NCBI GenBank assembly: GCA_015056795.1
Contig: SVFO01000016.1
Location: forward strand, 11,131 to 75,130
Direction: 5' to 3'
Origin: Lachnospiraceae bacterium
GTDB taxonomy: Bacteria; Bacillota; Clostridia; Lachnospirales; Lachnospiraceae
Length of the DNA: 64,000 nt
How positions within the stretch are numbered: the first letter of the stretch is position 1; each line of letters starts with the position of its first letter. Position numbers and translations under genes: made by a program. Positions 43,889 to 59,914 of the stretch are shown here, piece by piece. The notes beneath the pieces are model-generated. The model did no database searches. It was not told the DNA's origin and was given only the letters and a program-made list of their open reading frames with translations.

Positions 43889-44872
43889 ATGTTTTGTGTA
43901 GAATGTGGCAAAGAACTTCCTGACGAAGCAATATTTTGTGACAACTGTGGGACTCGCATTCAGCAGGAAAAAGCAGACGAGTACGAGACAAAAAAGAAAG
44001 AAGAAAACGGACAAAAAGAAAGCCCAAACGTGGCGCGGATAATGGAACAGTTAGCTTCGACGCAGCCAGGTGAAGTGGCGCTGGATGCCTTCGGAAATCT
44101 GACGGGAGAAGCATCCGAATTGACATCCAAAGCCGCTGCGCCCGCCCTGGAAATCGTGGGTCCGTTCATGACCTTACTTCGCGGGGTGAAATCCTTCGCG
44201 CAAGGTTTTCTTGGCATGATCAAAAACAAACAATGGATCAAACTGGCATTGGCCATCCTGCTTGCGGCAGGATGGCTTGTTTTGATGATTCTGTCCTACA
44301 ACGAGACGGAAATAGATTTCCTGAACTGGCTGACCTTTGCTCAGGGAGGCATGGGGCGAAGTGTTGTCGGATGGCTTGGCGGGTTGCTTGGAAAAACGAC
44401 CGTGGCGGCCATGCTGTTCTCCTTATTTGGAGGGGGCTTTAAATCCCTGGGAAGCGGCGTGAAGTCGCTTTTTAGAAAAACCAATTTTCAGAAAAACATG
44501 TTGGGCTCGCTGATGCTTGGCGCAGGCTTTGCGTTGATCGCCTATCAGGCCTTTGCGGGAGACGCAAGCCTTACGGACACCATGTCTGCCATCTCTGGCG
44601 CACTGCTTTCCGTCATGGCATTGGGACGTTGTAACGGATTCCTTTGGAGCATGGCGCAGTCCATAACCGCGAGAAAGACAGGGAAAATGCGTACTGCCCA
44701 AAAGGAAAAGCTTCAGGGCATGCTCACCGGCATGACCTTTGGTTTTACGTTGGGCGCACTTGTCACCTTCATTCCATTTGGATGGCTTCCCGTCATTCTC
44801 GGAGGTGTCCTCCTTGTCACAGGAATTGTTTTGACCCTTGTTTTTGGAAAAGCAAAGGAGGTGGCCGCATGA
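43889..44872 (+). CDS. Zinc-ribbon (CxxC-x10-CxxC) N-terminal domain fused to a Gly-rich multi-pass membrane domain
   Basis: MFCVECGKELPDEAIFCDNCG. At least 5 hydrophobic Gly-rich helices. AAGGAGG SD upstream. Confidence 0.7.
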   Translation: MFCVECGKELPDEAIFCDNCGTRIQQEKADEYETKKKEENGQKESPNVARIMEQLASTQPGEVALDAFGNLTGEASELTSKAAAPALEIVGPFMTLLRGVKSFAQGFLGMIKNKQWIKLALAILLAAGWLVLMILSYNETEIDFLNWLTFAQGGMGRSVVGWLGGLLGKTTVAAMLFSLFGGGFKSLGSGVKSLFRKTNFQKNMLGSLMLGAGFALIAYQAFAGDASLTDTMSAISGALLSVMALGRCNGFLWSMAQSITARKTGKMRTAQKEKLQGMLTGMTFGFTLGALVTFIPFGWLPVILGGVLLVTGIVLTLVFGKAKEVAA

Positions 44873-47800
44873 GAAAGAGACGAATGAAACGCATCACGGG
44901 ATGGTTGGTCGCTGTTTTGGTGACATGCCTTACCCTTGCGGCTCCGGTTATGGCAGCCATGACCAGCGCGGAAGACTTGGCGTGGGCTAGAACTACGAGC
45001 CTTGAGGAAGTTAGGAGTAAGCTGGGAGATTTACAGAAGTATTTGGTTCCGTTTGACGATTGGTATACCTACCGCTATTGGGTGCAATATCGCCTTGGCG
45101 GCGGCACCAATCAGGGAAATGCAGATGGCTACAGCAACACTCTTTCGTATATTGTCGGGACGGATGTAATAACGGATCAAAAATATCAATCTGGACTAAC
45201 AATAGCATATTGCCGTTTTGATTTAGAGTTGCCTGATCTTCCACATTTTGATGGACATGAGAATCATGTATTCTACTATGTTGAAACACCCTCTTCAACG
45301 GAATGGGAAGAGATTAAGGAATATAATCATCTCAAGGAGGATGCAAACGGCGGATATATCACTAGTATTGGCGGGTATCCTGCAAAAGGTTATTATACCT
45401 GGAACAAAACAGGTTACAACTTGGAGGTTTACGTAAATTTGCATAATCTGATGCCATGGGCTCCGGAAAATGAGACAAAGAGATGTATTCTCTATTTTCA
45501 TATCAAATCGTATTCTAATGAAGAAGCGCTAGCCAAGGCAAGGCAAATTGAAGAACTGATCAAAAACTGGCAGCCCAAGCTCTCTGATCCCGTGGTGATC
45601 GGAGCGGATCCCGAACTGTTCGAGAAATATGGCATTAAAACTGGAGGAGTAGATGTCGTGGTCGATACCTACGCGGAGGATGAGCCCGGCGAAGACAGTA
45701 CGATTTCTTCCAATGAGGACGATAAGTCTGGTAAAAAGGAAGGCAATAAAGAACGCGACAAGGACGAGGACAAGAAATCAAAGGGTCATGAGGACGGAGG
45801 AACAACGATTCCGGCGATTATTATCCTTGGGACGCTGGGCACGGCAGGCGCGGCAGCGGCAGCGGGAGCAGCAGGAGCGGGCGCAGGAAGCGGAAGTGAA
45901 AAACCAGACGGATCCGACGAAAAGAAGCGTTCCACCTTCAAAATGTATATCAACAAGGATTTTGGCAATAAACTGAAGAAGGGCGATGAACCCAAGGCAG
46001 TTTATGCGAGAATTGTGGAGAGAAAGCCGAGCGGCGAGGAGGTCGACAGGACGGACCTTACGGAGCAAATCCAGGTCTTTTCTTCTGATGGATCGCTTGT
46101 CGTGACGGACGGCGGCATGAGCACGAACGGGTATCGCTGTGCCATGGCCTGCGTGCCTGAAGTGGACGAACCAGAGTCCGAAGGAAAGGTTAGCTTTTTC
46201 TTTGAGGGCGAGGGTGGCACCTTTACGCAGAATGTCATCTTTAATATTACCATTCCTGGAATTAAGTTCTTCCAGGATAATTTGACGCTGCCTGCGGGAG
46301 AACTGGATGAGCCCGAATTCCTGCCCTTTGAGGTTCAGGAAATGGGCGATAAATATGACATAGAGGTTTCCTATAACGGCGAGGATTATGAGATTGATCT
46401 GGCGGAATGTGACGATCCCGAGATGAAGGACGTGCACTATGTCGCACTCATGGAAAAGAATAAACAGGTATTTGACGCCGGTGTTTATACGGAATCCTGG
46501 GTGAACGTGACGGTGAAGAACGAGACCCAAAAGATTACCGCGAGTGTAAAGATCATTCGCATGAGCATGGGCCTGAACGTCACCGTAAAGGCGCTGAACT
46601 GCTATCGCGTGCCCAAGAAGGAATCCGCGGGCAAGGAAATGAAGAAGATGACGATTGCGGATTTTGAAACCGCGACCACGGAAGCCATGGCCTATGTTCT
46701 GTACTATGACAAGGAAGAACACGTGGTGCGTCAGCAGGCGGCTTTCCCGTCGGTAACCTTAGAGCCTCTTGACGGCGAAGCGGAGGAGAGAAAGAAGCAG
46801 GTCAGCGAATCCCTTGCGCAGATTAAGATAAACTGCAAGCTTCTGCGCACGGAGGATCAATTTTCTGTCTGTGTATTTGTTTGTGAAGGCGGATTCCTGG
46901 ATGCTCCGGCCAGATACAACGTGAAGCTATGCATGACTGCGGAAATCCCTGTAGGAGAAGGGGAAAAGCAGCACATGGTGAAGTATCAGGCCGAGCGTAT
47001 CGTGCTTTTGCGTAGCCAGCCCAGCAGGATTGTGGCGGGTGTGAAAGAAAACTATGAAGTTGACAAATATGACGATCAGATCACGGACATGCTGTATCGG
47101 ATCAAAGAGATCGTGTTTGACAACTACATGAACCATCTGTTTTCTTTGTATCACATGATCGACCGCATGACGGACGGATACGACCGCGCGTATGGCTATG
47201 ATCCTTACCAAGTGGCAAAGGTGGTTGACGTTTGGGACAGGTTCCAAAGAGGGGAATTACTGGGCGCCAACGCGGAGGCGAAAGGCTACGGCGTGGCGGA
47301 CGAGCTGGAGGCGCTGGCGGCGGCCACGAGAAGCTGGGACGGTTGGCAGGGCATTGTTCTCAGGATTTCCCTTGACGTCATGACCGGCGGTGCGTCGGAG
47401 ATTGCCATGGTGGCCTTGGACATGAACCGCGGTGCCATGGACTACCGCAAGGAGACCGGAGGACAGGGTACGGCATTTGGTTATTTCAAGGCAGCGGGAA
47501 TTCCGCTTTTGTTTGGTGCAGGATTTGGCGTGGCGGCAGCCGTGGGTAAGGGCGCATCCAAGCTGGTTGGAACGCAGGCAAAGAAGCTTTTCCCGAAGAA
47601 GACGGCGGCACTGTTAAAGAAGGCAGAGGCCGTGAAAAACACGGCGAAGGAGATGGCGGAGCTCGCAGCCAAGGACGTGAAAGCTGCGGCGGGTTACGTA
47701 AGCTCAGTCATTCCACAGGGTGCCAAAACGGCCAGTGCTAAGATCGGGAATCTCGTGAATGCGGTTGTGGAAACCGTGGACAGCGTTGATCCCAGACTTT

Positions 47801-49167
47801 ACGTACCGAAAGCAAAAATGGCGAATAGCGTGGTAAGCACCAGCGTTAACAAGGGTAAGACCACGGGCGACGCATTGATTGGTGAGGCAAAGGCGGCGCA
47901 GAAAAACATACGCGAGAAGTGCATCGACATGGCGGGAAATGCTACGAACAAAGAGGGCGAGATCATTTATAACGAGATGATCGCGGCGAAAAAGGCGCTT
48001 CAGGCGGATCCTACAAGTGGTGCAGCGCAGCTTCGATACAATCAGTCCCTGATGGAGTTTAAGGCGAGCCATGCGGCAATTGAGCATGCCAACAGCATCA
48101 TGCCCGGTCAAAACCTGAATATGCGTGAAATGATCAACGCGGATCTTGAAAAGATGACATCTATGGTAGAAGGTAAGGTAAAGACCAAGGCTGGAGATTG
48201 GTATAACATTGATCCAAATACGGTGAAGGTGGAGCGGGCAACGGCAAACAAGGGTGCAGGTCTGAAGTTTGGACGAGACTGTGACATGACGCCGAAGGTT
48301 GTCACGAAGGAGGGTGGTACAAAATACATAAGTCAGGCCACGACGGACACAATTTTGGAAGAAGCCGTTCATGAGACCATTGAAGAGACATGTGGAAAGG
48401 AGTTCGCAAATCAATTTGCACCGAAAGGTAAATTCTCCCAGAAGATGGATTTCACGGGGTGTACCGTGCAACACGCGGATTATTTCCAAGGCGGTCTGGA
48501 CACCGTGCAGCAGGTGACGGATAAGGCACGCATGAGTGAGTTTATGGGAGCGGAGCAAGCCAGAAGCGTGGCAGATACGCTTCGCTACAAGGGAGTGCAT
48601 CCTTATGAGGCCGGCGCAAAGCTAGAAAAGGAAGTGCTTTCCAAGCTGACGGACGGGGAGGCGGATGCCCTGCTTAAGGAGTTGGAGGCTTATGCAAAGG
48701 CCGACGCGAATGTTGCCAAAACCATGCAATTGTCCGAAAACGCAAAGAAATTAAAAGAGGCCTATGCACTGATGGAAGAAGGCTTGTATCAACCCTCAAA
48801 ATATGGGAAAAAAGTTGTGGAGAAGGAATGGGTATCCATTAAGGCTGGTTACGGGGAAACGCTCACGGGTCAGGATTATGTGAATGCACGCATTCTTGAC
48901 CGTGGAAGCGGACAGGCGTTGACGGAAGAGATGAAGCATCGCACGGAGGAATGGGTAGGAGAGCGTATTACTCTTTCTGAAGCCAGAAAGGCCTGCGAAT
49001 TAAATGGCACCACCATCGAAAAAGCAATTAAAGGCGTTGGGGACGCTTTTGAAAGACTGGACAAGAATTTCAAATATGGTTCCGTTTCCTCGGTGACGAG
49101 TGCCGTTGGAATAGGCGGCGCGATCAACGCTGGCCGGAATGCCACAAATGGTTCCAAGAAGAAATAA
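44869..49167 (+). CDS. Orphan 1,432-aa membrane protein (signal peptide, ectodomain, acidic linker, TM helix, about 1,090-aa C-terminal region)
   Basis: ATGA start/stop overlap with the upstream gene. MRKRRMKRITGWLVAVLVTCLTLAAPVMA signal-like N-terminus. TM at nt ~45803-45890. No family recognised. Confidence 0.7.
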   Translation: MRKRRMKRITGWLVAVLVTCLTLAAPVMAAMTSAEDLAWARTTSLEEVRSKLGDLQKYLVPFDDWYTYRYWVQYRLGGGTNQGNADGYSNTLSYIVGTDVITDQKYQSGLTIAYCRFDLELPDLPHFDGHENHVFYYVETPSSTEWEEIKEYNHLKEDANGGYITSIGGYPAKGYYTWNKTGYNLEVYVNLHNLMPWAPENETKRCILYFHIKSYSNEEALAKARQIEELIKNWQPKLSDPVVIGADPELFEKYGIKTGGVDVVVDTYAEDEPGEDSTISSNEDDKSGKKEGNKERDKDEDKKSKGHEDGGTTIPAIIILGTLGTAGAAAAAGAAGAGAGSGSEKPDGSDEKKRSTFKMYINKDFGNKLKKGDEPKAVYARIVERKPSGEEVDRTDLTEQIQVFSSDGSLVVTDGGMSTNGYRCAMACVPEVDEPESEGKVSFFFEGEGGTFTQNVIFNITIPGIKFFQDNLTLPAGELDEPEFLPFEVQEMGDKYDIEVSYNGEDYEIDLAECDDPEMKDVHYVALMEKNKQVFDAGVYTESWVNVTVKNETQKITASVKIIRMSMGLNVTVKALNCYRVPKKESAGKEMKKMTIADFETATTEAMAYVLYYDKEEHVVRQQAAFPSVTLEPLDGEAEERKKQVSESLAQIKINCKLLRTEDQFSVCVFVCEGGFLDAPARYNVKLCMTAEIPVGEGEKQHMVKYQAERIVLLRSQPSRIVAGVKENYEVDKYDDQITDMLYRIKEIVFDNYMNHLFSLYHMIDRMTDGYDRAYGYDPYQVAKVVDVWDRFQRGELLGANAEAKGYGVADELEALAAATRSWDGWQGIVLRISLDVMTGGASEIAMVALDMNRGAMDYRKETGGQGTAFGYFKAAGIPLLFGAGFGVAAAVGKGASKLVGTQAKKLFPKKTAALLKKAEAVKNTAKEMAELAAKDVKAAAGYVSSVIPQGAKTASAKIGNLVNAVVETVDSVDPRLYVPKAKMANSVVSTSVNKGKTTGDALIGEAKAAQKNIREKCIDMAGNATNKEGEIIYNEMIAAKKALQADPTSGAAQLRYNQSLMEFKASHAAIEHANSIMPGQNLNMREMINADLEKMTSMVEGKVKTKAGDWYNIDPNTVKVERATANKGAGLKFGRDCDMTPKVVTKEGGTKYISQATTDTILEEAVHETIEETCGKEFANQFAPKGKFSQKMDFTGCTVQHADYFQGGLDTVQQVTDKARMSEFMGAEQARSVADTLRYKGVHPYEAGAKLEKEVLSKLTDGEADALLKELEAYAKADANVAKTMQLSENAKKLKEAYALMEEGLYQPSKYGKKVVEKEWVSIKAGYGETLTGQDYVNARILDRGSGQALTEEMKHRTEEWVGERITLSEARKACELNGTTIEKAIKGVGDAFERLDKNFKYGSVSSVTSAVGIGGAINAGRNATNGSKKK

Positions 49168-53413: not shown

Positions 53414-54154
53414 GTGAATAAACTAATTGCGATCATATCATTGTTAATAACGCTTACCTCTTCCATCATGGGGAGCGCTCAAGAATTGAAAAAGGAGAAC
53501 ATGGATTATCAGGATTCGCCTAAATGGGTGGCGCAGCTCGGAAAAGAAAAGGAGGCAACGCAGCTTTTTGTGGTTGCCGCCGTGGGACAGACAACGGCAT
53601 ATGTTTCCATGCATGAAAAGGATGCACGTGGGCAGTGGAAGGAAATCATGACTACCCCCGGCTATATCGGAAAGAAGGGTCTTGGCAAGACCAAAGAGGG
53701 CGATGAAAAGACGCCGCAGGGAACCTACCACTTTAACGCGGCTTTCGGAATTGCGGCGGATCCGGGATGCGCCTTGCCGTATCATCAGGTCACGAAGGAT
53801 GATTATTGGTCGGGTGATCCGAGGGAGGGATATGCTTATAATCAGCTCGTGAGCATCAAAGAGTATCCTGGGCTTGACGTGAAAAACGTCAATACGGAGC
53901 ATTTGATTCAATGTGATCCCGAATATACCTATTGCCTGAACATTAGCTATAATGAGGATTGTGTCCCTGGGGTTGGCGGTGCGATCTTTTTACACTGTAC
54001 TGGAAAGATCAAGCCCTTTACCGGCGGCTGCGTTGCAATCCCCGAGGAATACATGCTTCAAGTGATGCAAAACGTTAAGCCGGAATGCGTTGTCGTGATT
54101 GATGAGCTGAAAACGCTGAGTCCGGAGACCTGGAAAAGGCTGAGGCTGGACTAG
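53414..54154 (+). CDS. L,D-transpeptidase catalytic-domain family protein (COG3786-like) with signal peptide
   Basis: N-terminal signal-like helix. GGAIFLHC...TGGCVAIPEEYM catalytic Cys context. Confidence 0.65.
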   Translation: MNKLIAIISLLITLTSSIMGSAQELKKENMDYQDSPKWVAQLGKEKEATQLFVVAAVGQTTAYVSMHEKDARGQWKEIMTTPGYIGKKGLGKTKEGDEKTPQGTYHFNAAFGIAADPGCALPYHQVTKDDYWSGDPREGYAYNQLVSIKEYPGLDVKNVNTEHLIQCDPEYTYCLNISYNEDCVPGVGGAIFLHCTGKIKPFTGGCVAIPEEYMLQVMQNVKPECVVVIDELKTLSPETWKRLRLD

Positions 54155-54230: not shown

Positions 54231-54557
54231 TTAAGCAAGTGCAGGCAACATCCAGATCACGCGATAGGCAATTCTGCGATACCACTTGTCGCCATTGTCC
54301 TCAAGGTCAACGCCATTGGCAACGCTGTTGTAAAAGGACTTTACGATCTTTGCGCTGCGAAGGAACTTCGGAACAAATCTGAAATTGTAATAAATATATG
54401 CATGTGCGAAGATTTCGCACGAAAGCTGACTTAAGGACATGCCGGTGATTTTCTCCTCACCGGCAATTTCTTTTGCCATTTCCTGGCAGTTTGCACGGCT
54501 GTATAATTCTCTTCCCATGGGGATGTTCATGTACTTCTTGCTCATCATTTCACTCAT
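54231..54557 (-). CDS. Hypothetical 108-aa protein, divergent from the TIR gene
   Basis: ATG has GGAGG 8 nt upstream on the minus strand. No recognisable motif. Confidence 0.5.
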   Translation of the reverse strand: MSEMMSKKYMNIPMGRELYSRANCQEMAKEIAGEEKITGMSLSQLSCEIFAHAYIYYNFRFVPKFLRSAKIVKSFYNSVANGVDLEDNGDKWYRRIAYRVIWMLPALA

Positions 54558-54787
54558 CGATTCTTCCTCCTGCTTTCTTGCTTTGTACCGTTTTTGTTTC
54601 CCTTAAGGCATGTCTCTTGTTTTGTTCGGTTCTTGTTTCCTTTAAGGCACATCATTTCCTTGTCTGTAAGCTTAGGATATCATGCCTTTCTGGGAAACGC
54701 CATCGAATCTCCTTACAGAAATCTTACGCTTTTGTAAGAAACAGGATGGTGCGCTATCTCTTGCACGATATTTACCCAGAAAAGTCA

Positions 54788-54816
54788 TTGCATCTTTAGT
54801 GAAAACTCATTATAAT
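54788..54816 (+). promoter_or_regulatory. Near-consensus sigma-A promoter of the TIR-Sel1 gene
   Basis: TTGCAT (54788-93), 17-nt spacer, TATAAT (54811-16). GAGGAGG SD at ~54849. Confidence 0.6.
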
Positions 54817-54862
54817 TTAGATAAGTGTGGCCTAAAAACCATTACGTGAGGAGGAAACCTAA

Positions 54863-57856
54863 ATGGAAACAGAACAAAAGAATGATACCATAGAAGAACA
54901 GGAGACCGCGCAAGGGGCGACAGCAAGCGAGGCGACAACACCTGCAAGCGAGACGACAGCAAGTGGGGCGACAACAGCTGCAAGCGAGGCGACGCAGGAA
55001 ACAAAGGCCATAAACAATGGGCTGGACGTCTTTATCAGTTATTCTACGAAAAATAAAAACGTGGCAGATGCGGTGGTTGCGAACTTCGAACAGCACGGGA
55101 TCCGCTGTTGGTATGCACCGAGGGACATTCTCCCCGGACAGGAATGGGTGTCCGCGATCAAGGAGGCACTTCATAAGGCGAAGATTTTCGTCCTGATTTA
55201 CACGGATGAATCCAACGCCTCCAGACAGGTTATGAACGAGGTGGCGCTGGCCTTCAACGCCAATAAGACGATTGTGCCTTTCCGCCTGACCGAGGGCAAC
55301 ATGAATGATGAATTGGAATACTATCTTACCAGAGTGCATTGGCTTGACGCCGTATCAAAGCCTTTGGAGAGAAACATAGACGCACTGCGTAATTACGTGG
55401 AAGCGAACTTAAATCGCCCGAAAACGGAGGCGTCAGGTGCGAATGCGTCGCAAAGCGGAACGAGTCCTTCAGAGAAGGCTGGATCGAAGGATTCTAAAGC
55501 CGCTACGAACGCCGCAGGAAAGAAAAAGAGTAAGGCAGGCGTATGGATCGCCGTGGCAGCGGTTGCCGTATTGCTAATCGCGGGAGGAATTTTGGCCTAC
55601 CTTAAATTTCGAGGACCGAACAAGGAAGAGCTTATGGCATCAGGCTATAATACCCTCTTTTATACGGAGCAAGGCACAGAAAATAACGCGGCTGCTAAGG
55701 AAATTTACGAACAGGCAGTTAAGGCAGGCGTGGTGGACGCCTACTATTACCTTGGGCTGATCGAGACGAGAGCCTATGACTATAAGGCAGCTAAGGAATA
55801 TTACGAGCAAGGCGTTGACAAGGATAGCAATCTTTGCCGCCTTGGATTAGGATATTTGTATCAGAAAGGATATGGCGTCAAGGCTGACTCGGAGAAGGCT
55901 TGGAAGCTCTATAATGAAGCCTTGGACAACGGTTGCGTGGAGGCAGATTACTACCGCGCATTGATTGTGAAGGTCGGTCTTGCAAAACAGGAAATCAGCG
56001 GTACAAAGGCTGCGAAATATCTCAACAATGTGATTGACGAGAGCCAGGATCAGCACTTCGTTGCCTTGGCTTATAATCAATTGGGCCTATTGTATAAAAA
56101 TGGTACGGCAGACTTCGCAGAGGATAAGCAGGCTGCCATCCAAAATTTTGAAAAGATCACAGAGACCATGGACAGCACGGAAAACCGCTTTATGCAGGAA
56201 TATAATATCGGTTTAACATACCGCTCCATGGGTGAAGACGTTAAGGCAGGTGACCACTTCCGCGAGGCCTACGCAGCGCTCGAAAAGATGGCGGTCGCTG
56301 GCTCTCCCAATGCCATTTACTGGTGTGGCATCATGAAGCAATATGGCTATGGCTTTGACAGTGACTATGAAGAGGCGATTCGTCTGTACACGAAGGCGAA
56401 TGACACCGTAAAGGAACAAAATGATAGGGCTTGCTGCTATGAAGCCATGGAATATGCCGGAAAGATCTATGTTAATGGAGGGGGCAATGTCACGAAGGAT
56501 CTGGATAAGGCGTATGACTTCTTTAAGGAAGCAGCGGATGCAGGATATGGCGTTGCTGCGTACCAGATAGGACTACTTTACAATAATAACGGATATCAGG
56601 GAAAAGGTAAAGAAGCGGACACGGAAAATCCGAACTATGACATGGCAAGGCAGTGGTATGACAAGGCTACGGAATATGGCTGCGTTGATGCCTATGCCAA
56701 TATCGGATTACTCTATGGCACTGGTAAAGTCTTGCCGGAAGGAAATCAGAAAGCCGAAGACATAGCCATGGAATGGTATCAGAGGGGTGCAGATCTTGGA
56801 AGCGCAACATGTATTTATAACATGGGTGCAGTCTGTGAAGGTTTGAAGGAGTATGAAAAAGCCTTCTCTTACTTCGAAAAAGCAGCATATTTGGAGTATT
56901 TGAGCGCACAAAAGGCATTAGGCGTATATTACGAGAATGGCTGGGGAGTGGCAAAGGACGATCAGAAGGCATTAGAATGGTATCTCAAGGCTGCGGAGGG
57001 AAATAATACCTATGCATTGGAGAGATTGGCGAAAGCTTATTACTTTGAGAATCTTTCTGTCAAGAAAGATGTTGAAGAGTCATTTAAATGGGCTCTAAAA
57101 GGTGCGGAAAACGGGAATTCCTATTGCATGTATTTCGTTGGCTGTTTGTATAGAGGCGGTGAGGGGACAGAACAAGACCTTGTTGCGGCAAATAGTTGGT
57201 TTGCAAAAGGCGCCGTGGCTGGGGATAAGTTTGCCATGTATGATTATGCAAAGGCGCTTGAAAAAGGCTCTGAGGGCATAGAACAAAATGAAAAAGAAGC
57301 GATTAAGTGGTATTTGAAGTCGGCGGAATTGGGATATAACTATGCTATGGCACATCTGGCAGATTATTATCGTAAGAATAATGAGGAAGAAAAAGCCTTT
57401 ACCTGGTATCTGAAATGTGCGGATACAGGATATGAAAGTATGAACCTGTACAAATACCTGGGGCAGTATTACCGTCAGGGGAAGGGAACGACGAAGAATG
57501 AGGACGAAGCGTTCAATTGGCTTAGCAAGGCGTATGATGCTGGCGCAACCTTGGATAAGGATGACCTTCGGTTCTTGACCTTCCGTTTTTATCCAGACGA
57601 TAAAAAGAGTTCGTTCCCGTATGCCAAGGCTGGGGCAGAAGCAGGAGAGGCTCTTTGCATGGCTGTCCTGGGTCAATTATATGAACTTGGAGAGGGAACG
57701 ACATCTGATATTAAGCTTGCGTTAAAATGGAATGGGGAAGCGATTCTTTCAGGAAACCTAAGTGAATCCAATTTAGAGGTCTGCAGAAATCGAATCAATC
57801 GATATGTGCAGGAGGGCTTGATCACCGAAGAGGAAGCGGCTCCCTATCTTCAGTAA
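54863..57856 (+). CDS. TIR domain, single TM helix and about 750-aa Sel1-like repeat (SLR) protein
   Basis: TIR: LDVFISYSTKNKNVADAV...WYAPRDILPGQEW...SNASRQVMNEVALAF. TM: GVWIAVAAVAVLLIAGGILAYL. Many A..YY.LG..Y..G.GV..D...A..WY.KAA..G repeats. Confidence 0.85.
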   Translation: METEQKNDTIEEQETAQGATASEATTPASETTASGATTAASEATQETKAINNGLDVFISYSTKNKNVADAVVANFEQHGIRCWYAPRDILPGQEWVSAIKEALHKAKIFVLIYTDESNASRQVMNEVALAFNANKTIVPFRLTEGNMNDELEYYLTRVHWLDAVSKPLERNIDALRNYVEANLNRPKTEASGANASQSGTSPSEKAGSKDSKAATNAAGKKKSKAGVWIAVAAVAVLLIAGGILAYLKFRGPNKEELMASGYNTLFYTEQGTENNAAAKEIYEQAVKAGVVDAYYYLGLIETRAYDYKAAKEYYEQGVDKDSNLCRLGLGYLYQKGYGVKADSEKAWKLYNEALDNGCVEADYYRALIVKVGLAKQEISGTKAAKYLNNVIDESQDQHFVALAYNQLGLLYKNGTADFAEDKQAAIQNFEKITETMDSTENRFMQEYNIGLTYRSMGEDVKAGDHFREAYAALEKMAVAGSPNAIYWCGIMKQYGYGFDSDYEEAIRLYTKANDTVKEQNDRACCYEAMEYAGKIYVNGGGNVTKDLDKAYDFFKEAADAGYGVAAYQIGLLYNNNGYQGKGKEADTENPNYDMARQWYDKATEYGCVDAYANIGLLYGTGKVLPEGNQKAEDIAMEWYQRGADLGSATCIYNMGAVCEGLKEYEKAFSYFEKAAYLEYLSAQKALGVYYENGWGVAKDDQKALEWYLKAAEGNNTYALERLAKAYYFENLSVKKDVEESFKWALKGAENGNSYCMYFVGCLYRGGEGTEQDLVAANSWFAKGAVAGDKFAMYDYAKALEKGSEGIEQNEKEAIKWYLKSAELGYNYAMAHLADYYRKNNEEEKAFTWYLKCADTGYESMNLYKYLGQYYRQGKGTTKNEDEAFNWLSKAYDAGATLDKDDLRFLTFRFYPDDKKSSFPYAKAGAEAGEALCMAVLGQLYELGEGTTSDIKLALKWNGEAILSGNLSESNLEVCRNRINRYVQEGLITEEEAAPYLQ

Positions 57857-58741: not shown

Positions 58742-59914
58742 ATGTATTATGCAAGCTTTGGAATGCTGGCACTAGTAGTGATTCTTATCATTAATTATGC
58801 GGCGTTGAAAAACCAGAAGAATGCAAGAAGGCCCATGGTAAGAAGCAGGTATCGCCGGTTCCTGATTGTCATCATGGCGTACCTGATCACGGACGCCCTG
58901 TGGGGAATCCTATATGACCTGCAGTACGTCGCGCTGACTTACGTTGACACAGTCATTTACTTCCTTCTGATGGTGGCTTCCCTGCTCTTGTGGACCAGAT
59001 TTGTAGTTTCTTATTTGGAAAATAAAGGTGTTTTTGAGAAGCTTTTGCTCATTGCGGGTTATCTTCTTGCAGTCTACTCGATCGTTATGCTTGGCATTAA
59101 TTTTTATACGCCGATCGCGTTTGGTTTTGATGAGCAGGGGCAATATTTTCCCGGGCGGGCAAGATTTATCCTGTTAATTGCGCAGGTCGGACTGTTCCTG
59201 GCGACCTCTGCTTACACGCTGATCATTGCATATAGGCTGAGCGGTCTTGCCAGATCCCGTTACAGGGCCATAGGTATATCCGGCATTGTCATGATGACCT
59301 TCGTTGTCCTGCAGTCTGTCTGGCCCCTGCTGCCGCTTTATGGCGTTGGATGCCTGTTGGCAACCTGCGTCATTCATACCTTCGTTTACTCCGACGAAAT
59401 GACGGAGCATACGCAAGAAATGGATTCTGCAAAGCAGATGGCGTATTTTGATGCCTTGACGGGTGCGCATAACAAATTGGCGTATCAGGAAAAGGAGACG
59501 GAGATAGACTCGGAATTAGTCAGCGGATCCCTGAAGGCTTTTGGCGTGATTGTATTTGATTTGAATGGCCTGAAAAGGGTCAACGACACGCGGGGACATG
59601 AGGCCGGAGATGAATACATTAAGCAGGCCTGTCATGAGATCAGCGGGAAGTTTACGCACAGCCCCCTCTACCGTATCGGCGGAGACGAGTTTGTTGTGAT
59701 TCTCGAGGGGCGTGATTATGTGGACAGAAATCGTCTGCTTCTGACGTTCGAGGAGGAGATCGAGAACAACCAGGAGGAAGGACGAGTCGTGGTCTCAAGC
59801 GGGATGGGCGTATTCAAGCCATATGACGACAAATGCTACAATGACGTGTTTGTGCGGGCGGACAGAAAGATGTATGAGAGAAAAGGGTATTTAAAGGGAT
59901 TGGCGAAGGAATAA
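58742..59914 (+). CDS. Membrane-anchored diguanylate cyclase (GGDEF)
   Basis: About 6-7 N-terminal TM helices. DALTGAHNK, LNGLKRVND and RIGGDEFVV motifs. Confidence 0.9.
   Translation: MYYASFGMLALVVILIINYAALKNQKNARRPMVRSRYRRFLIVIMAYLITDALWGILYDLQYVALTYVDTVIYFLLMVASLLLWTRFVVSYLENKGVFEKLLLIAGYLLAVYSIVMLGINFYTPIAFGFDEQGQYFPGRARFILLIAQVGLFLATSAYTLIIAYRLSGLARSRYRAIGISGIVMMTFVVLQSVWPLLPLYGVGCLLATCVIHTFVYSDEMTEHTQEMDSAKQMAYFDALTGAHNKLAYQEKETEIDSELVSGSLKAFGVIVFDLNGLKRVNDTRGHEAGDEYIKQACHEISGKFTHSPLYRIGGDEFVVILEGRDYVDRNRLLLTFEEEIENNQEEGRVVVSSGMGVFKPYDDKCYNDVFVRADRKMYERKGYLKGLAKE

Follow-up and report, generated by a model that had tools for sequence, protein, structure and literature searches.

Animal Toll-like receptors (TLRs) are type I proteins composed of a signal peptide, an N-terminal LRR ectodomain, a transmembrane (TM) segment and a C-terminal TIR domain, and their TIR domains are not known to be NADases. 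Bacterial TIR proteins characterised so far are mostly defence proteins; to our knowledge, every one of them acts via NAD+ chemistry, and the bacterial TIR systems characterised to date all respond to cues arising in the cytoplasm. The NAD+-cleaving TIRs, such as SARM1, AbTir, the plant TIRs, SPARTA TIR-APAZ, ThsB and TIR-STING, respond to cytoplasmic triggers (the NMN/NAD ratio, cyclic nucleotides, guide-target duplexes or phage proteins), and none of those listed has a TM segment plus an extracellular domain. The Tcp virulence factors (TcpB/BtpA and TcpC) are soluble, secreted proteins of pathogens with a C-terminal TIR domain, which act on host TLR signalling. An aromatic residue (W204 in AbTir, W638 in SARM1) is shared by all known cyclase TIRs; it stacks on the substrate, and the mutations W638A in SARM1 and W204A in AbTir reduce activity (Manik et al.). 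TirC of Dictyostelium, a TIR NADase that derives from bacteria, is tethered by a TM segment, and this membrane tether has been inferred to be essential for taming the NADase activity in the amoeba (bioRxiv 10.64898/2026.04.30.722052). Sel1 repeats preceded by a TM segment have been classed as a peptidoglycan-associating, membrane-proximal module, and Sel1, PEGA, PASTA and OmpA modules occur in iSTAND conflict systems, in which TIR is among the effector domains (Kaur et al. 2020, PMC7159879).

In this work we focused on a gene of a rumen Lachnospiraceae bacterium, lying in a 64,000-nt stretch of DNA (the window), whose product joins a TIR domain, a TM helix and a long Sel1 solenoid, and is best read as a type II single-pass, receptor-like protein. 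Our literature search found no published characterisation or earlier description of this TIR-TM-Sel1 architecture. The gene (54863..57856, + strand, from the ORF list) is complete from ATG to TAA and encodes 997 aa. Full-length orthologues were found (P0001 at 95% identity, P0002 at 74%), and dN/dS values of 0.03-0.15 indicate that the gene is functional.

All features of the protein are given on the + strand. An acidic N-terminal tail rich in T, A, E and S (aa 1-52, 54863..55018), disordered with a pLDDT below 50 and without a hydrophobic segment, precedes the TIR domain (aa 53-185, 55019..55417), which is predicted to be cytoplasmic. The tail varies in length, the TIR domain beginning at aa 3 to 200 among homologues. 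It is followed by a disordered linker rich in S, A, G and K and ending in KKKSK (aa 186-225, 55418..55537), with a net charge of +5 adjoining the membrane and spanned by a low-confidence stretch of the AF2 model (aa 185-232, pLDDT below 50). Next come a single TM helix of the type II signal anchor kind (aa 226-249, 55538..55609) and an alpha-solenoid of approximately 20 Sel1-like repeats, assigned as extracytoplasmic (aa 254-996, 55622..57850). The full-length AF2 model (pLDDT 85.6) places the TM helix at 227-249 and shows the solenoid as 40 consecutive, uninterrupted helices at 254-996, mostly with a pLDDT above 90. The Pfam Sel1 match (E 3.3e-57, 189 bits against a cut-off of 30.7) identifies an SLR protein. 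The predicted order of domains was thus confirmed by Pfam, hydropathy and AF2.

Only one segment of the protein is hydrophobic, with a 19-aa Kyte-Doolittle mean of up to 2.67; elsewhere no 19-aa window reaches 1.4. By hydropathy no signal peptide was found, the N-terminus being hydrophilic and acidic. The TM helix, flanked on its N side by KKKSK, is kept at a conserved position in approximately 113 of 120 homologues and in 73 of 74 complete genome copies. Among 192 family members the mean number of K+R was 4.58 on the TIR side and 2.69 on the Sel1 side (Wilcoxon p = 2.6e-23), with the excess on the N side in 140 members and on the C side in 17. The Sel1 relatives of solved structure are presumably secreted, periplasmic or ER-luminal proteins. 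The single TM helix, the lack of a signal peptide and the topology with the TIR domain inside and the solenoid outside, all proposed originally, are therefore upheld by hydropathy, AF2 and the positive-inside statistics, and we consider the architecture together with the N-in/C-out topology to be highly probable. In a Gram-positive-type cell, a membrane-tethered solenoid of some 20 repeats would probably be found inside the wall or close to it instead of forming an exposed surface for contact with phages.

The protein is not a one-off but one paralogue of a large multi-copy Lachnospiraceae family. The occurrence survey suggested earlier was run and yielded 427 copies of the TIR-TM family in GTDB species-representative genomes, several per genome and mostly in rumen Lachnospiraceae, with tandem paralogues and thousands of sequence clusters. 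The TIR-TM-x layout is found in 53 of 63 single-TIR representatives, and the ectodomains are of the Sel1 type in 70 of 75 cases, BspA-LRR in 2/75 and Lectin_C in 2/75. The pattern is thus an almost invariant TIR-TM module joined to ectodomains that differ in length and sequence.

This layout recalls that of animal TLRs in several respects: a single pass, an extracytoplasmic solenoid, a cytoplasmic TIR domain, and families of many paralogues with conserved TIR domains and variable ectodomains, rare members here even carrying LRR ectodomains. In contrast to TLRs, the protein is of type II, with an N-terminal TIR domain, a reversed order and orientation and no signal peptide, its solenoid is built of Sel1 alpha-hairpins and not of LRRs, and no MyD88-like adaptor is known. 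The 'reversed TLR' logic put forward earlier holds for layout and topology and does not extend to membership of the TLR family; since homology can be traced for the TIR domain alone, the resemblance is one of logic. Dictyostelium TirC likewise has one hydrophobic helix and a low-complexity linker that hold a TIR domain at the membrane, but it is eukaryotic, its TM segment is N-terminal to the TIR domain, it lacks an ectodomain and its TIR domain is related to that of SfTIR-STING.

Pfam TIR_2 (PF13676) matched aa 56-166 with 79.9 bits (cut-off 28, E 2.9e-22), which places the domain in the TIR superfamily, and an AF2 model of the TIR domain alone (pLDDT 91.3) has the flavodoxin-like TIR fold. 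The best Foldseek matches of this model were SARM1, SPARTA TIR-APAZ, TIR-1 and MyD88 (TM-scores up to 0.79), the probability being 1.00 for SARM1, TIR-APAZ, MyD88 and RPP1; the fold is shared with the NAD+-cleaving TIRs at TM-scores of 0.67-0.79, and the MyD88 and MAL filaments are also structurally near. When the family profile was compared with the PDB, TIR-STING, Hydra TRR-2, TLR6/1/2 and MAL ranked above AbTIR, PdTIR 3h16 and BtpA, the last being only a distant match (E 0.09).

Boxes 1 and 2 of the family TIR domain (DVFISYS and RDxxPG) are of the TLR type. Box 2 lies in the BB-loop region APRDILPGQEW (55115..55147), in which A85, P86 and R87 do not vary in the family alignment and P91, G92 and W95 hardly vary, and which aligns to the RDxxPG/RNxxPG of TIR-STING, TRR-2, TLR6 and MAL. 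A conserved BB loop, needed for the composite active site, is also a property of the NAD+-cleaving TIRs. Seventeen TIR residues are conserved in at least 116 of 118 family sequences and ten in all 118, among them E126 (55238..55240), the candidate catalytic Glu of helix alpha-C. By hhalign profile alignment, using a SARM1 sequence checked against the PDB, E126 corresponds to SARM1 E642 (probability 95.6%), so that the original alignment of this residue with the catalytic Glu of NADase TIRs stands. The surrounding segment SNxSxQVMNE is invariant as well (118/118). However, the position four residues before the Glu, aromatic in NAD+-cleaving TIRs, is occupied by Q122 (55226..55228), which is found in all 118 sequences and is paired by hhalign with SARM1 W638, the Trp of WxxxE (AbTir W204). 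This invariant Gln argues against the production of cADPR isomers, weakening the 'signal production' of the original prediction, and the family TIR domain is probably no cyclase; with the stacking aromatic replaced, it may be inactive or use other chemistry. Nor is a conserved Glu sufficient for NADase activity, because TLR6 carries a Glu at the aligned position and TLR TIR domains are not known to be NADases. The family TIR domain is a candidate NADase. Members of this subfamily were absent from the supplements of the Weagley et al. screen. The natural Gln at the Trp position offers a test of the role of this position in TIR chemistry.

The closest relatives of the ectodomain with solved structures are EsiB, Oxalobacter Sel1 proteins, 6deh, HcpC and SEL1L, the E values of EsiB, HcpC, Oxalobacter Sel1 and 6deh ranging from 4e-48 to 1e-6. 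These four share the alpha-solenoid protein-binding scaffold but are much shorter (PDB chains of 135-523 aa), and we take them to be soluble, exported by a signal peptide and devoid of a cytoplasmic signalling domain. Within the family, the median identity is 71% for the TIR domain against 32% for the ectodomain, and dN/dS is 0.03-0.04 against 0.11-0.15. The ectodomain is therefore under purifying selection overall, not under positive or diversifying selection. The TIR domain is strongly conserved while the solenoid evolves fast.

In the window the gene is flanked by a divergent 108-aa gene and YkuD on one side and by BcrAD and GGDEF on the other. The synteny block is of the housekeeping kind, and the chromosomal position is stable among metabolic genes in several species. 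In approximately 7 independent synteny groups a GGDEF gene lies at most two genes away, and 13 loci have histidine kinases nearby. No ThsA-type effector (SIR2/SLOG, Macro or TM effector) adjoins the gene, and none is recurrent in 80 related loci, which, together with PADLOC matches to ThsB that are weak and confined to the TIR domain, sets the locus apart from Thoeris (ThsB + ThsA). Likewise, no SAVED or other effector, defence island or conserved partner was found in the window or the related loci, and no phage or plasmid copies of the family were found. The iSTAND conflict systems also have Sel1 repeats behind a TM segment, and TIR among their effector domains, but they are three-gene vWA-MoxR-iSTAND systems, and linked vWA, MoxR or iSTAND NTPase genes are absent near the gene and among the recurrent neighbours of its relatives. 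The immune role suggested originally thus receives no support from the context.

We propose the following mechanism. A flexible tether and one TM helix connect the cytoplasmic TIR domain to the solenoid, a rigid structure of approximately 20 Sel1 repeats that probably stands inside the cell wall or close to it. The solenoid would bind an extracytoplasmic ligand, for example a component of the wall or envelope or a molecule of a foreign surface, thereby altering the clustering of receptors in the plane of the membrane. Once clustered, the TIR domains would associate via their BB loops on the cytoplasmic side and become active as an assembly, whose output would most likely be simple NAD+ hydrolysis to ADPR and nicotinamide rather than synthesis of a cyclic ADPR isomer, leading to a metabolic or growth-arrest response or to a non-cyclic signal. 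The conserved TIR output module, E126, the RDxxPG oligomerisation motif and the multi-copy, receptor-like nature of the family speak for such a mechanism, and the closest structural neighbours of the modelled TIR domain are NADase TIRs. Against it count Q122, the Glu of TLRs, the absence of a partner or of a defence or mobile context, and purifying selection on the ectodomain. Enzymatic activity, ligand and physiological role, be it immunity or envelope signalling, are what we infer, and the mechanism taken as a whole, from type II receptor through ligand-driven clustering and TIR assembly to NAD+ hydrolysis, is tentative, with chances that we put a little short of even.

Alternatively, the TIR domain might be non-enzymatic and serve purely in interactions, homotypic or heterotypic, as in TLRs, MyD88 and MAL, clustering wall-associated Sel1 proteins or recruiting a cytoplasmic partner such as a c-di-GMP or two-component protein without NAD+ cleavage. 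The ranking of metazoan receptor and adaptor TIRs above bacterial ones in the PDB profile comparison, the TLR-type boxes, the missing WxxxE Trp, the closeness of the MyD88 and MAL filaments, and the GGDEF and histidine kinase genes nearby all fit this explanation. The invariance of E126 and its segment, however, points to an active site more than to an interface, the best Foldseek matches are NADase TIRs, no partner gene is conserved beside the family, and NAD+ chemistry is, as far as we know, the rule for characterised bacterial TIRs; we regard a pure adaptor as unlikely, if worth keeping in mind. We consider it distinctly improbable that, as suggested originally, the surface solenoid senses phages as they adsorb or inject at the envelope and triggers NADase suicide or a Thoeris-like cyclic signal. 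The defensive role of most bacterial TIRs, the candidate catalytic Glu, the many copies with variable ectodomains and PADLOC matches, though weak, to TIR modules from SAVED-TIR, ThsB and TIR-pAgo are in favour of such a role, but these matches span the generic TIR fold only, Q122 argues against cADPR-isomer signals, the dN/dS of the ectodomain is far below 1, and the stable metabolic-gene locus holds no ThsA, SLOG, Macro or SAVED gene or defence island, nor were phage or plasmid copies found. Finally, an inverted or released protein, with cytoplasmic Sel1 repeats and a TIR domain exposed or secreted to modulate host immunity, has a precedent in the Tcp proteins and would suit an inhabitant of the animal gut, but is very improbable given the 225-aa hydrophilic N-terminus without a signal peptide before the only TM helix, positive-inside statistics pointing strongly the opposite way, extracytoplasmic Sel1 relatives, and 427 copies of a membrane-anchored protein with an N-terminal TIR domain, mostly in commensal rumen Lachnospiraceae.

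Returning to the receptor mechanism, its broadest form would be that rumen Lachnospiraceae hold a true outside-in TIR receptor family. Single-pass paralogues, numbering from dozens to thousands, would use ectodomains of the Sel1, LRR or lectin kind to bind ligands that differ between receptors and are extracellular or belong to the cell wall, and their near-identical cytoplasmic TIR domains would turn ligand-induced clustering into a common NAD+- or adaptor-based response. We think this possible, albeit on the doubtful side. If true, it would be the first prokaryotic system working on Toll-like receptor logic and possibly a clue to the origin of TM-coupled TIR signalling. With a TIR domain coupled across the membrane to a solenoid outside the cell, bacterial TIR biology would extend to envelope sensing, and the family would offer a simple, genetically tractable analogue of activation by TLR-type clustering. 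Given its abundance in fibre-degrading Lachnospiraceae of the rumen, its function could matter for the ecology of an economically important microbiome.

The divergent 108-aa gene (orf108, 54231..54557, - strand), described earlier as an orphan, is instead a conserved hypothetical gene with 51 homologue clusters (43-97% identity, about 105 aa), without a match in Pfam, PADLOC, NCBIfam or PHROG. Its homologues are usually unlinked to TIR genes, either varying in their position relative to them or having none close by, and it is probably a neighbour and not a functional partner. The spacer between the two genes is 305 nt long, as predicted, but calling it pyrimidine-rich was an overstatement, with 58% pyrimidine overall and 67% in the first 150 nt. 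Its direct repeat was confirmed (2 matches where 0.05 were expected) and is longer than first reported: two tandem 35-nt units of 86% identity (54576-54610 and 54615-54649) lie 19 nt from the orf108 start, on its upstream side. The repeat has no Rfam match and is species-specific, being present only in the window and in locus L001. The promoter, read from the sequence, was less close to consensus than claimed: the putative -10 box TATAAT (54811-16) is perfect, but 17 nt upstream of it the -35 box TTGCAT (54788-93) matches 3/6 positions only, and for this reason a consensus scan did not call it. These putative signals (54788..54854, + strand) end with GGAGG (54850-54), which stands 8 nt 5' of the ATG.

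The gene located at 54863..57856 on the forward strand of the window encodes a 997-aa protein, correctly described in the original prediction as a TIR domain followed by a single transmembrane (TM) segment and Sel1 repeats, according to Pfam, hydropathy and AlphaFold2. Pfam places a TIR_2 domain at residues 56-166 (79.9 bits, cut-off 28, E 2.9e-22) and detects the Sel1 repeats with an E value of 3.3e-57. A single strongly hydrophobic segment, GVWIAVAAVAVLLIAGGILAYL, reaches a 19-aa Kyte-Doolittle mean of up to 2.67, and no 19-aa window elsewhere in the protein reaches 1.4. Because the N-terminus is acidic and hydrophilic and contains no hydrophobic window, a signal peptide is absent. The TIR domain and the full-length protein were modelled by AlphaFold2 with family alignments (pLDDT 91.3 and 85.6, respectively). 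The full-length model comprises a disordered tail (residues 1-52), the TIR domain (residues 55-183), a disordered linker (residues 185-226, within a low-confidence stretch, 185-232, that extends to the first residues of the TM helix), a single long helix corresponding to the TM segment (residues 227-249) and 40 consecutive helices arranged in approximately 20 Sel1-like hairpins (residues 254-996), with no globular domain besides the TIR and the solenoid. The protein, hitherto uncharacterised, has its TIR domain arranged as in a membrane receptor. It matches no NCBIfam or PHROGs family, and a literature search, limited to open-access papers and therefore no proof of novelty, turned up no account of a bacterial protein with the TIR-TM-Sel1 architecture. 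The nearest concepts are the amoeba TirC, a TM-tethered NADase, and the TM-Sel1 modules of the iSTAND systems.

The 15 residues preceding the TM segment contain 5 K/R and no acidic residue, and the 15 residues following it 3 K/R and 2 D/E. The same bias was seen over 192 family members, with a K+R mean of 4.58 on the TIR side versus 2.69 on the Sel1 side; the positive charge was higher on the N-terminal side in 140 members and lower in 17 (Wilcoxon p = 2.6e-23). Among solved structures, the Sel1 proteins nearest to the ectodomain are EsiB, HcpC, the Oxalobacter Sel1 proteins and SEL1L, all of which we take to be extracytoplasmic. Charge statistics, lack of a signal peptide and the nature of these relatives together support the topology claimed at the outset, in which the TIR is cytoplasmic and the solenoid external. 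Kaur et al. 2020 (PMC7159879) independently place Sel1 repeats that follow a TM segment among the peptidoglycan-associating modules. In a monoderm, a solenoid of about 20 repeats anchored in this way would probably lie inside the wall or barely past it, and not far out on the surface.

A profile built from 21 family TIRs (A1), used for the PDB and hhalign comparisons because a single-sequence PDB search was too insensitive, matched many solved TIRs. The Glu that had been aligned by eye with the catalytic residue of NAD-cleaving TIRs, E126, falls exactly on the catalytic E642 of SARM1 (hhalign versus A1, probability 95.6%), which bears out that reading; the human SARM1 TIR sequence used is 100% identical to the PDB chains, its residue 1 being residue 560. 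Ten residues, E76, C82, A85, R87, N118, S120, Q122, E126, Y154 and W160, are invariant in 118/118 family sequences. Foldseek ranked NADase TIRs at the top (SARM1, the SPARTA TIR-APAZ, TIR-1 and RPP1), with MyD88 and MAL close after. By sequence profile, the best matches were TIRs of metazoan receptors and adaptors (oyster TIR-STING, Hydra TRR-2, TLR6/1/2 and MAL), and the RDxxPG motif of the BB loop is of the TLR type.

At the position where SARM1 has W638 and AbTir W204, the 'WxxxE' Trp, the family has an invariant Gln. According to Manik et al. (bioRxiv 10.1101/2022.05.07.491051), the residue at this position is aromatic in every cyclase TIR, and the W204A substitution reduces NADase activity as well as cyclisation. 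Since the Gln replaces this aromatic residue, cADPR isomers are an unlikely product of the family, and since W204A lowers NADase activity, the NADase activity of the family is not assured. In the profile alignment TLR6 also has a Glu at the position of E126, and TLR TIRs are not known to be NADases, so that this residue is necessary but not sufficient. No tested member of the TIR-TM-Sel1 subfamily was found in the supplements of Weagley et al.

The gene is a member of a large family and not a singleton. More than 100 homologue clusters, mostly from Lachnospiraceae MAGs (Acetatifactor, Butyrivibrio), combine TIR_2 and Sel1 and are annotated merely as 'TIR domain-containing protein'; the TIR is directly followed by a single TM segment in about 113 of 120 homologues. 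Scanning 185,579 species genomes yielded 427 copies; nearly all of the best 80 belong to rumen Lachnospiraceae, the cultured isolates AC2028, G41, P6A3 and AB2028 among them. Several genomes contain more than one copy, and some of them tandem paralogues. The order TIR, one TM segment and C-terminal region was found in 73 of 74 complete genes, for total lengths of 339-1080 aa, and the ectodomains were of the Sel1/TPR (70/75), BspA/DUF285-LRR (2/75) or C-type lectin (2/75) type. An exhaustive TIR profile search with a cut-off of E <= 1e-30 resulted in 7,011 representative clusters; the TIR-TM-x layout was present in 53 of the 63 best-scoring single-TIR representatives, and SxQxxxE was kept in all 63. 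The same search surfaced 57 proteins with 2-7 tandem TIR domains and up to 2,330 aa (within P0172-P0291; for example P0179, P0183, P0243, P0257, P0259 and P0272). Most of them lack SxQxxxE and several have a single TM segment behind the TIR array; such multi-TIR arrays joined to a TM segment look unusual.

Median identity was 71% for the TIR versus 32% for the ectodomain, and dN/dS 0.03-0.04 versus 0.11-0.15. These values indicate that both parts are under purifying selection and that the ectodomain changes faster, with no sign of diversifying selection on it at the gene-wide level. Between the window gene and its Acetatifactor orthologue (P0002, locus L081), dS was 0.65 in the TIR segment (55019-55417), less than half the 1.50 of the ectodomain, which could reflect gene conversion among paralogous TIR segments or an extra constraint on the TIR coding sequence.

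Several features fit a receptor: a type II single pass, a flexible tether, an extremely constrained TIR that has the catalytic Glu and a BB loop like that of TLRs, a rigid and faster-evolving external solenoid, and many paralogues, among which the ectodomain varies in repeat number and, in rare cases, in type. TIR NADases such as SARM1, AbTir, SPARTA and the plant TIRs require oligomerisation to build their active site, and clustering is a general signalling mode of single-pass receptors. For these reasons we propose that events at the ectodomain would control TIR-TIR assembly in the cytoplasm, the output of which would most likely be NAD+ hydrolysis. The main rival is a TIR acting as a pure scaffold, without catalysis. 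A dedicated anti-phage role is possible but has no support from the genomic context. The observation behind the original prediction is thus confirmed, and its interpretation as a surface-coupled sensor-effector is upheld only in part; all that we state on function we infer.

In the window the TIR gene sits in a housekeeping and metabolic block, in the order GH5 cellulase, GNAT, CooC/ParA-like ATPase, YkuD L,D-transpeptidase, orf108, TIR gene, BcrAD/BadFG ATPase, GGDEF protein and CdhC-like protein. The same block recurs in other species (L003 and L080) with neither YkuD nor orf108 detected, L002, whose contig ends early, retains its upstream genes only, and in Acetatifactor it is kept with an added orf108 homologue. 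The GC content (0.472 versus 0.480 for the window) is unremarkable. Clustering of all ORFs in 80 related loci revealed no conserved neighbour, with nothing in common beyond local synteny, and no defence-like genes among the recurrent neighbour families. PADLOC gave weak matches only, confined to the TIR, and the phage and plasmid collections generic Sel1 matches only, with no copy of the gene. A defence island or mobile element was rejected in view of the Pfam context, the normal GC content and the lack of phage or plasmid copies. The commonest neighbours were GGDEF proteins (15 loci), histidine kinases (13 loci) and an ABC ATPase (9 loci), representing a modest enrichment at most.

In about 7 independent synteny groups (15/80 loci) a TIR-TM gene has a GGDEF diguanylate-cyclase gene no more than two genes away, mostly downstream and on the same strand (L004, L006, L012, L057, L067/L068, L071/L074 and positions 58742-59914 of the window). 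This recurrence may point to a link with c-di-GMP signalling or merely to the high density of GGDEF genes in Lachnospiraceae. The YkuD-type gene (53414-54154, forward strand), located upstream of the TIR gene just past orf108, encodes a protein whose N-terminus has a hydrophobic, signal-like segment; among the 80 loci it was detected in L001 only, essentially the same species as the window. The presence of this peptidoglycan-crosslinking enzyme beside a putatively wall-associated Sel1 protein is probably a coincidence.

The 108-aa gene orf108 (54231..54557, reverse strand) diverges from the TIR gene across 305 nt. It had wrongly been called an orphan: 51 homologue clusters (P0121-P0171), every one without annotation, were found in Lachnospiraceae and Saccharofermentans, with a length of about 105 aa and 43-97% identity. 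This well-conserved small protein lacks a TM segment and matches nothing in Pfam, NCBIfam, PHROG or PADLOC. The gene was detected in 1/80 TIR loci (L001), its Acetatifactor homologue follows a second TIR paralogue in convergent orientation, and two more distant genomes carry a homologue with no TIR gene nearby. On these findings orf108 was rejected as a partner of the TIR protein; it is a lineage-specific neighbour.

The short direct repeat noted in the spacer is real and longer than first described, with a 35-nt unit present twice at 86% identity (54576-54649; 2 matches versus 0.05 expected) and containing the palindromic core CCTTAAGG. It precedes the start codon of orf108 by 19 nt, is not near the TIR promoter and is confined to one species (the window and L001). 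The absence of any Rfam match and this species specificity speak against a riboswitch or known RNA; the repeat may be an operator or may have arisen by recent duplication. The putative TIR promoter, proposed to be near-consensus, has a perfect -10 box followed by a strong GGAGG ribosome-binding site, but its -35 box matches at 3/6 positions only.

Double-zinc-ribbon membrane proteins (cluster c19) flank TIR-TM paralogues in L039, L051 and L052, and the window contains a gene for a 327-aa zinc-ribbon protein at 43889-44872. Zinc-ribbon domains also occur beside the TIR in the homologues P0027 and P0030, together with DUF2225 in P0027. This suggests a broader Lachnospiraceae class of type II membrane proteins with swappable small cytoplasmic heads. 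The end of the 327-aa gene overlaps the start of a 1,507-aa ORF (44644-49167, forward strand) with no Pfam match at E <= 1e-5. Proteins of cluster c15 (about 620-1,190 aa, no Pfam match) are encoded adjacent to the TIR-TM gene, or one gene away from it, in five loci, L009 (6401-9842), L006, L013, L014 and L021, and are accompanied in L009 and L021 by an ion-channel/RyR-domain protein (c47).
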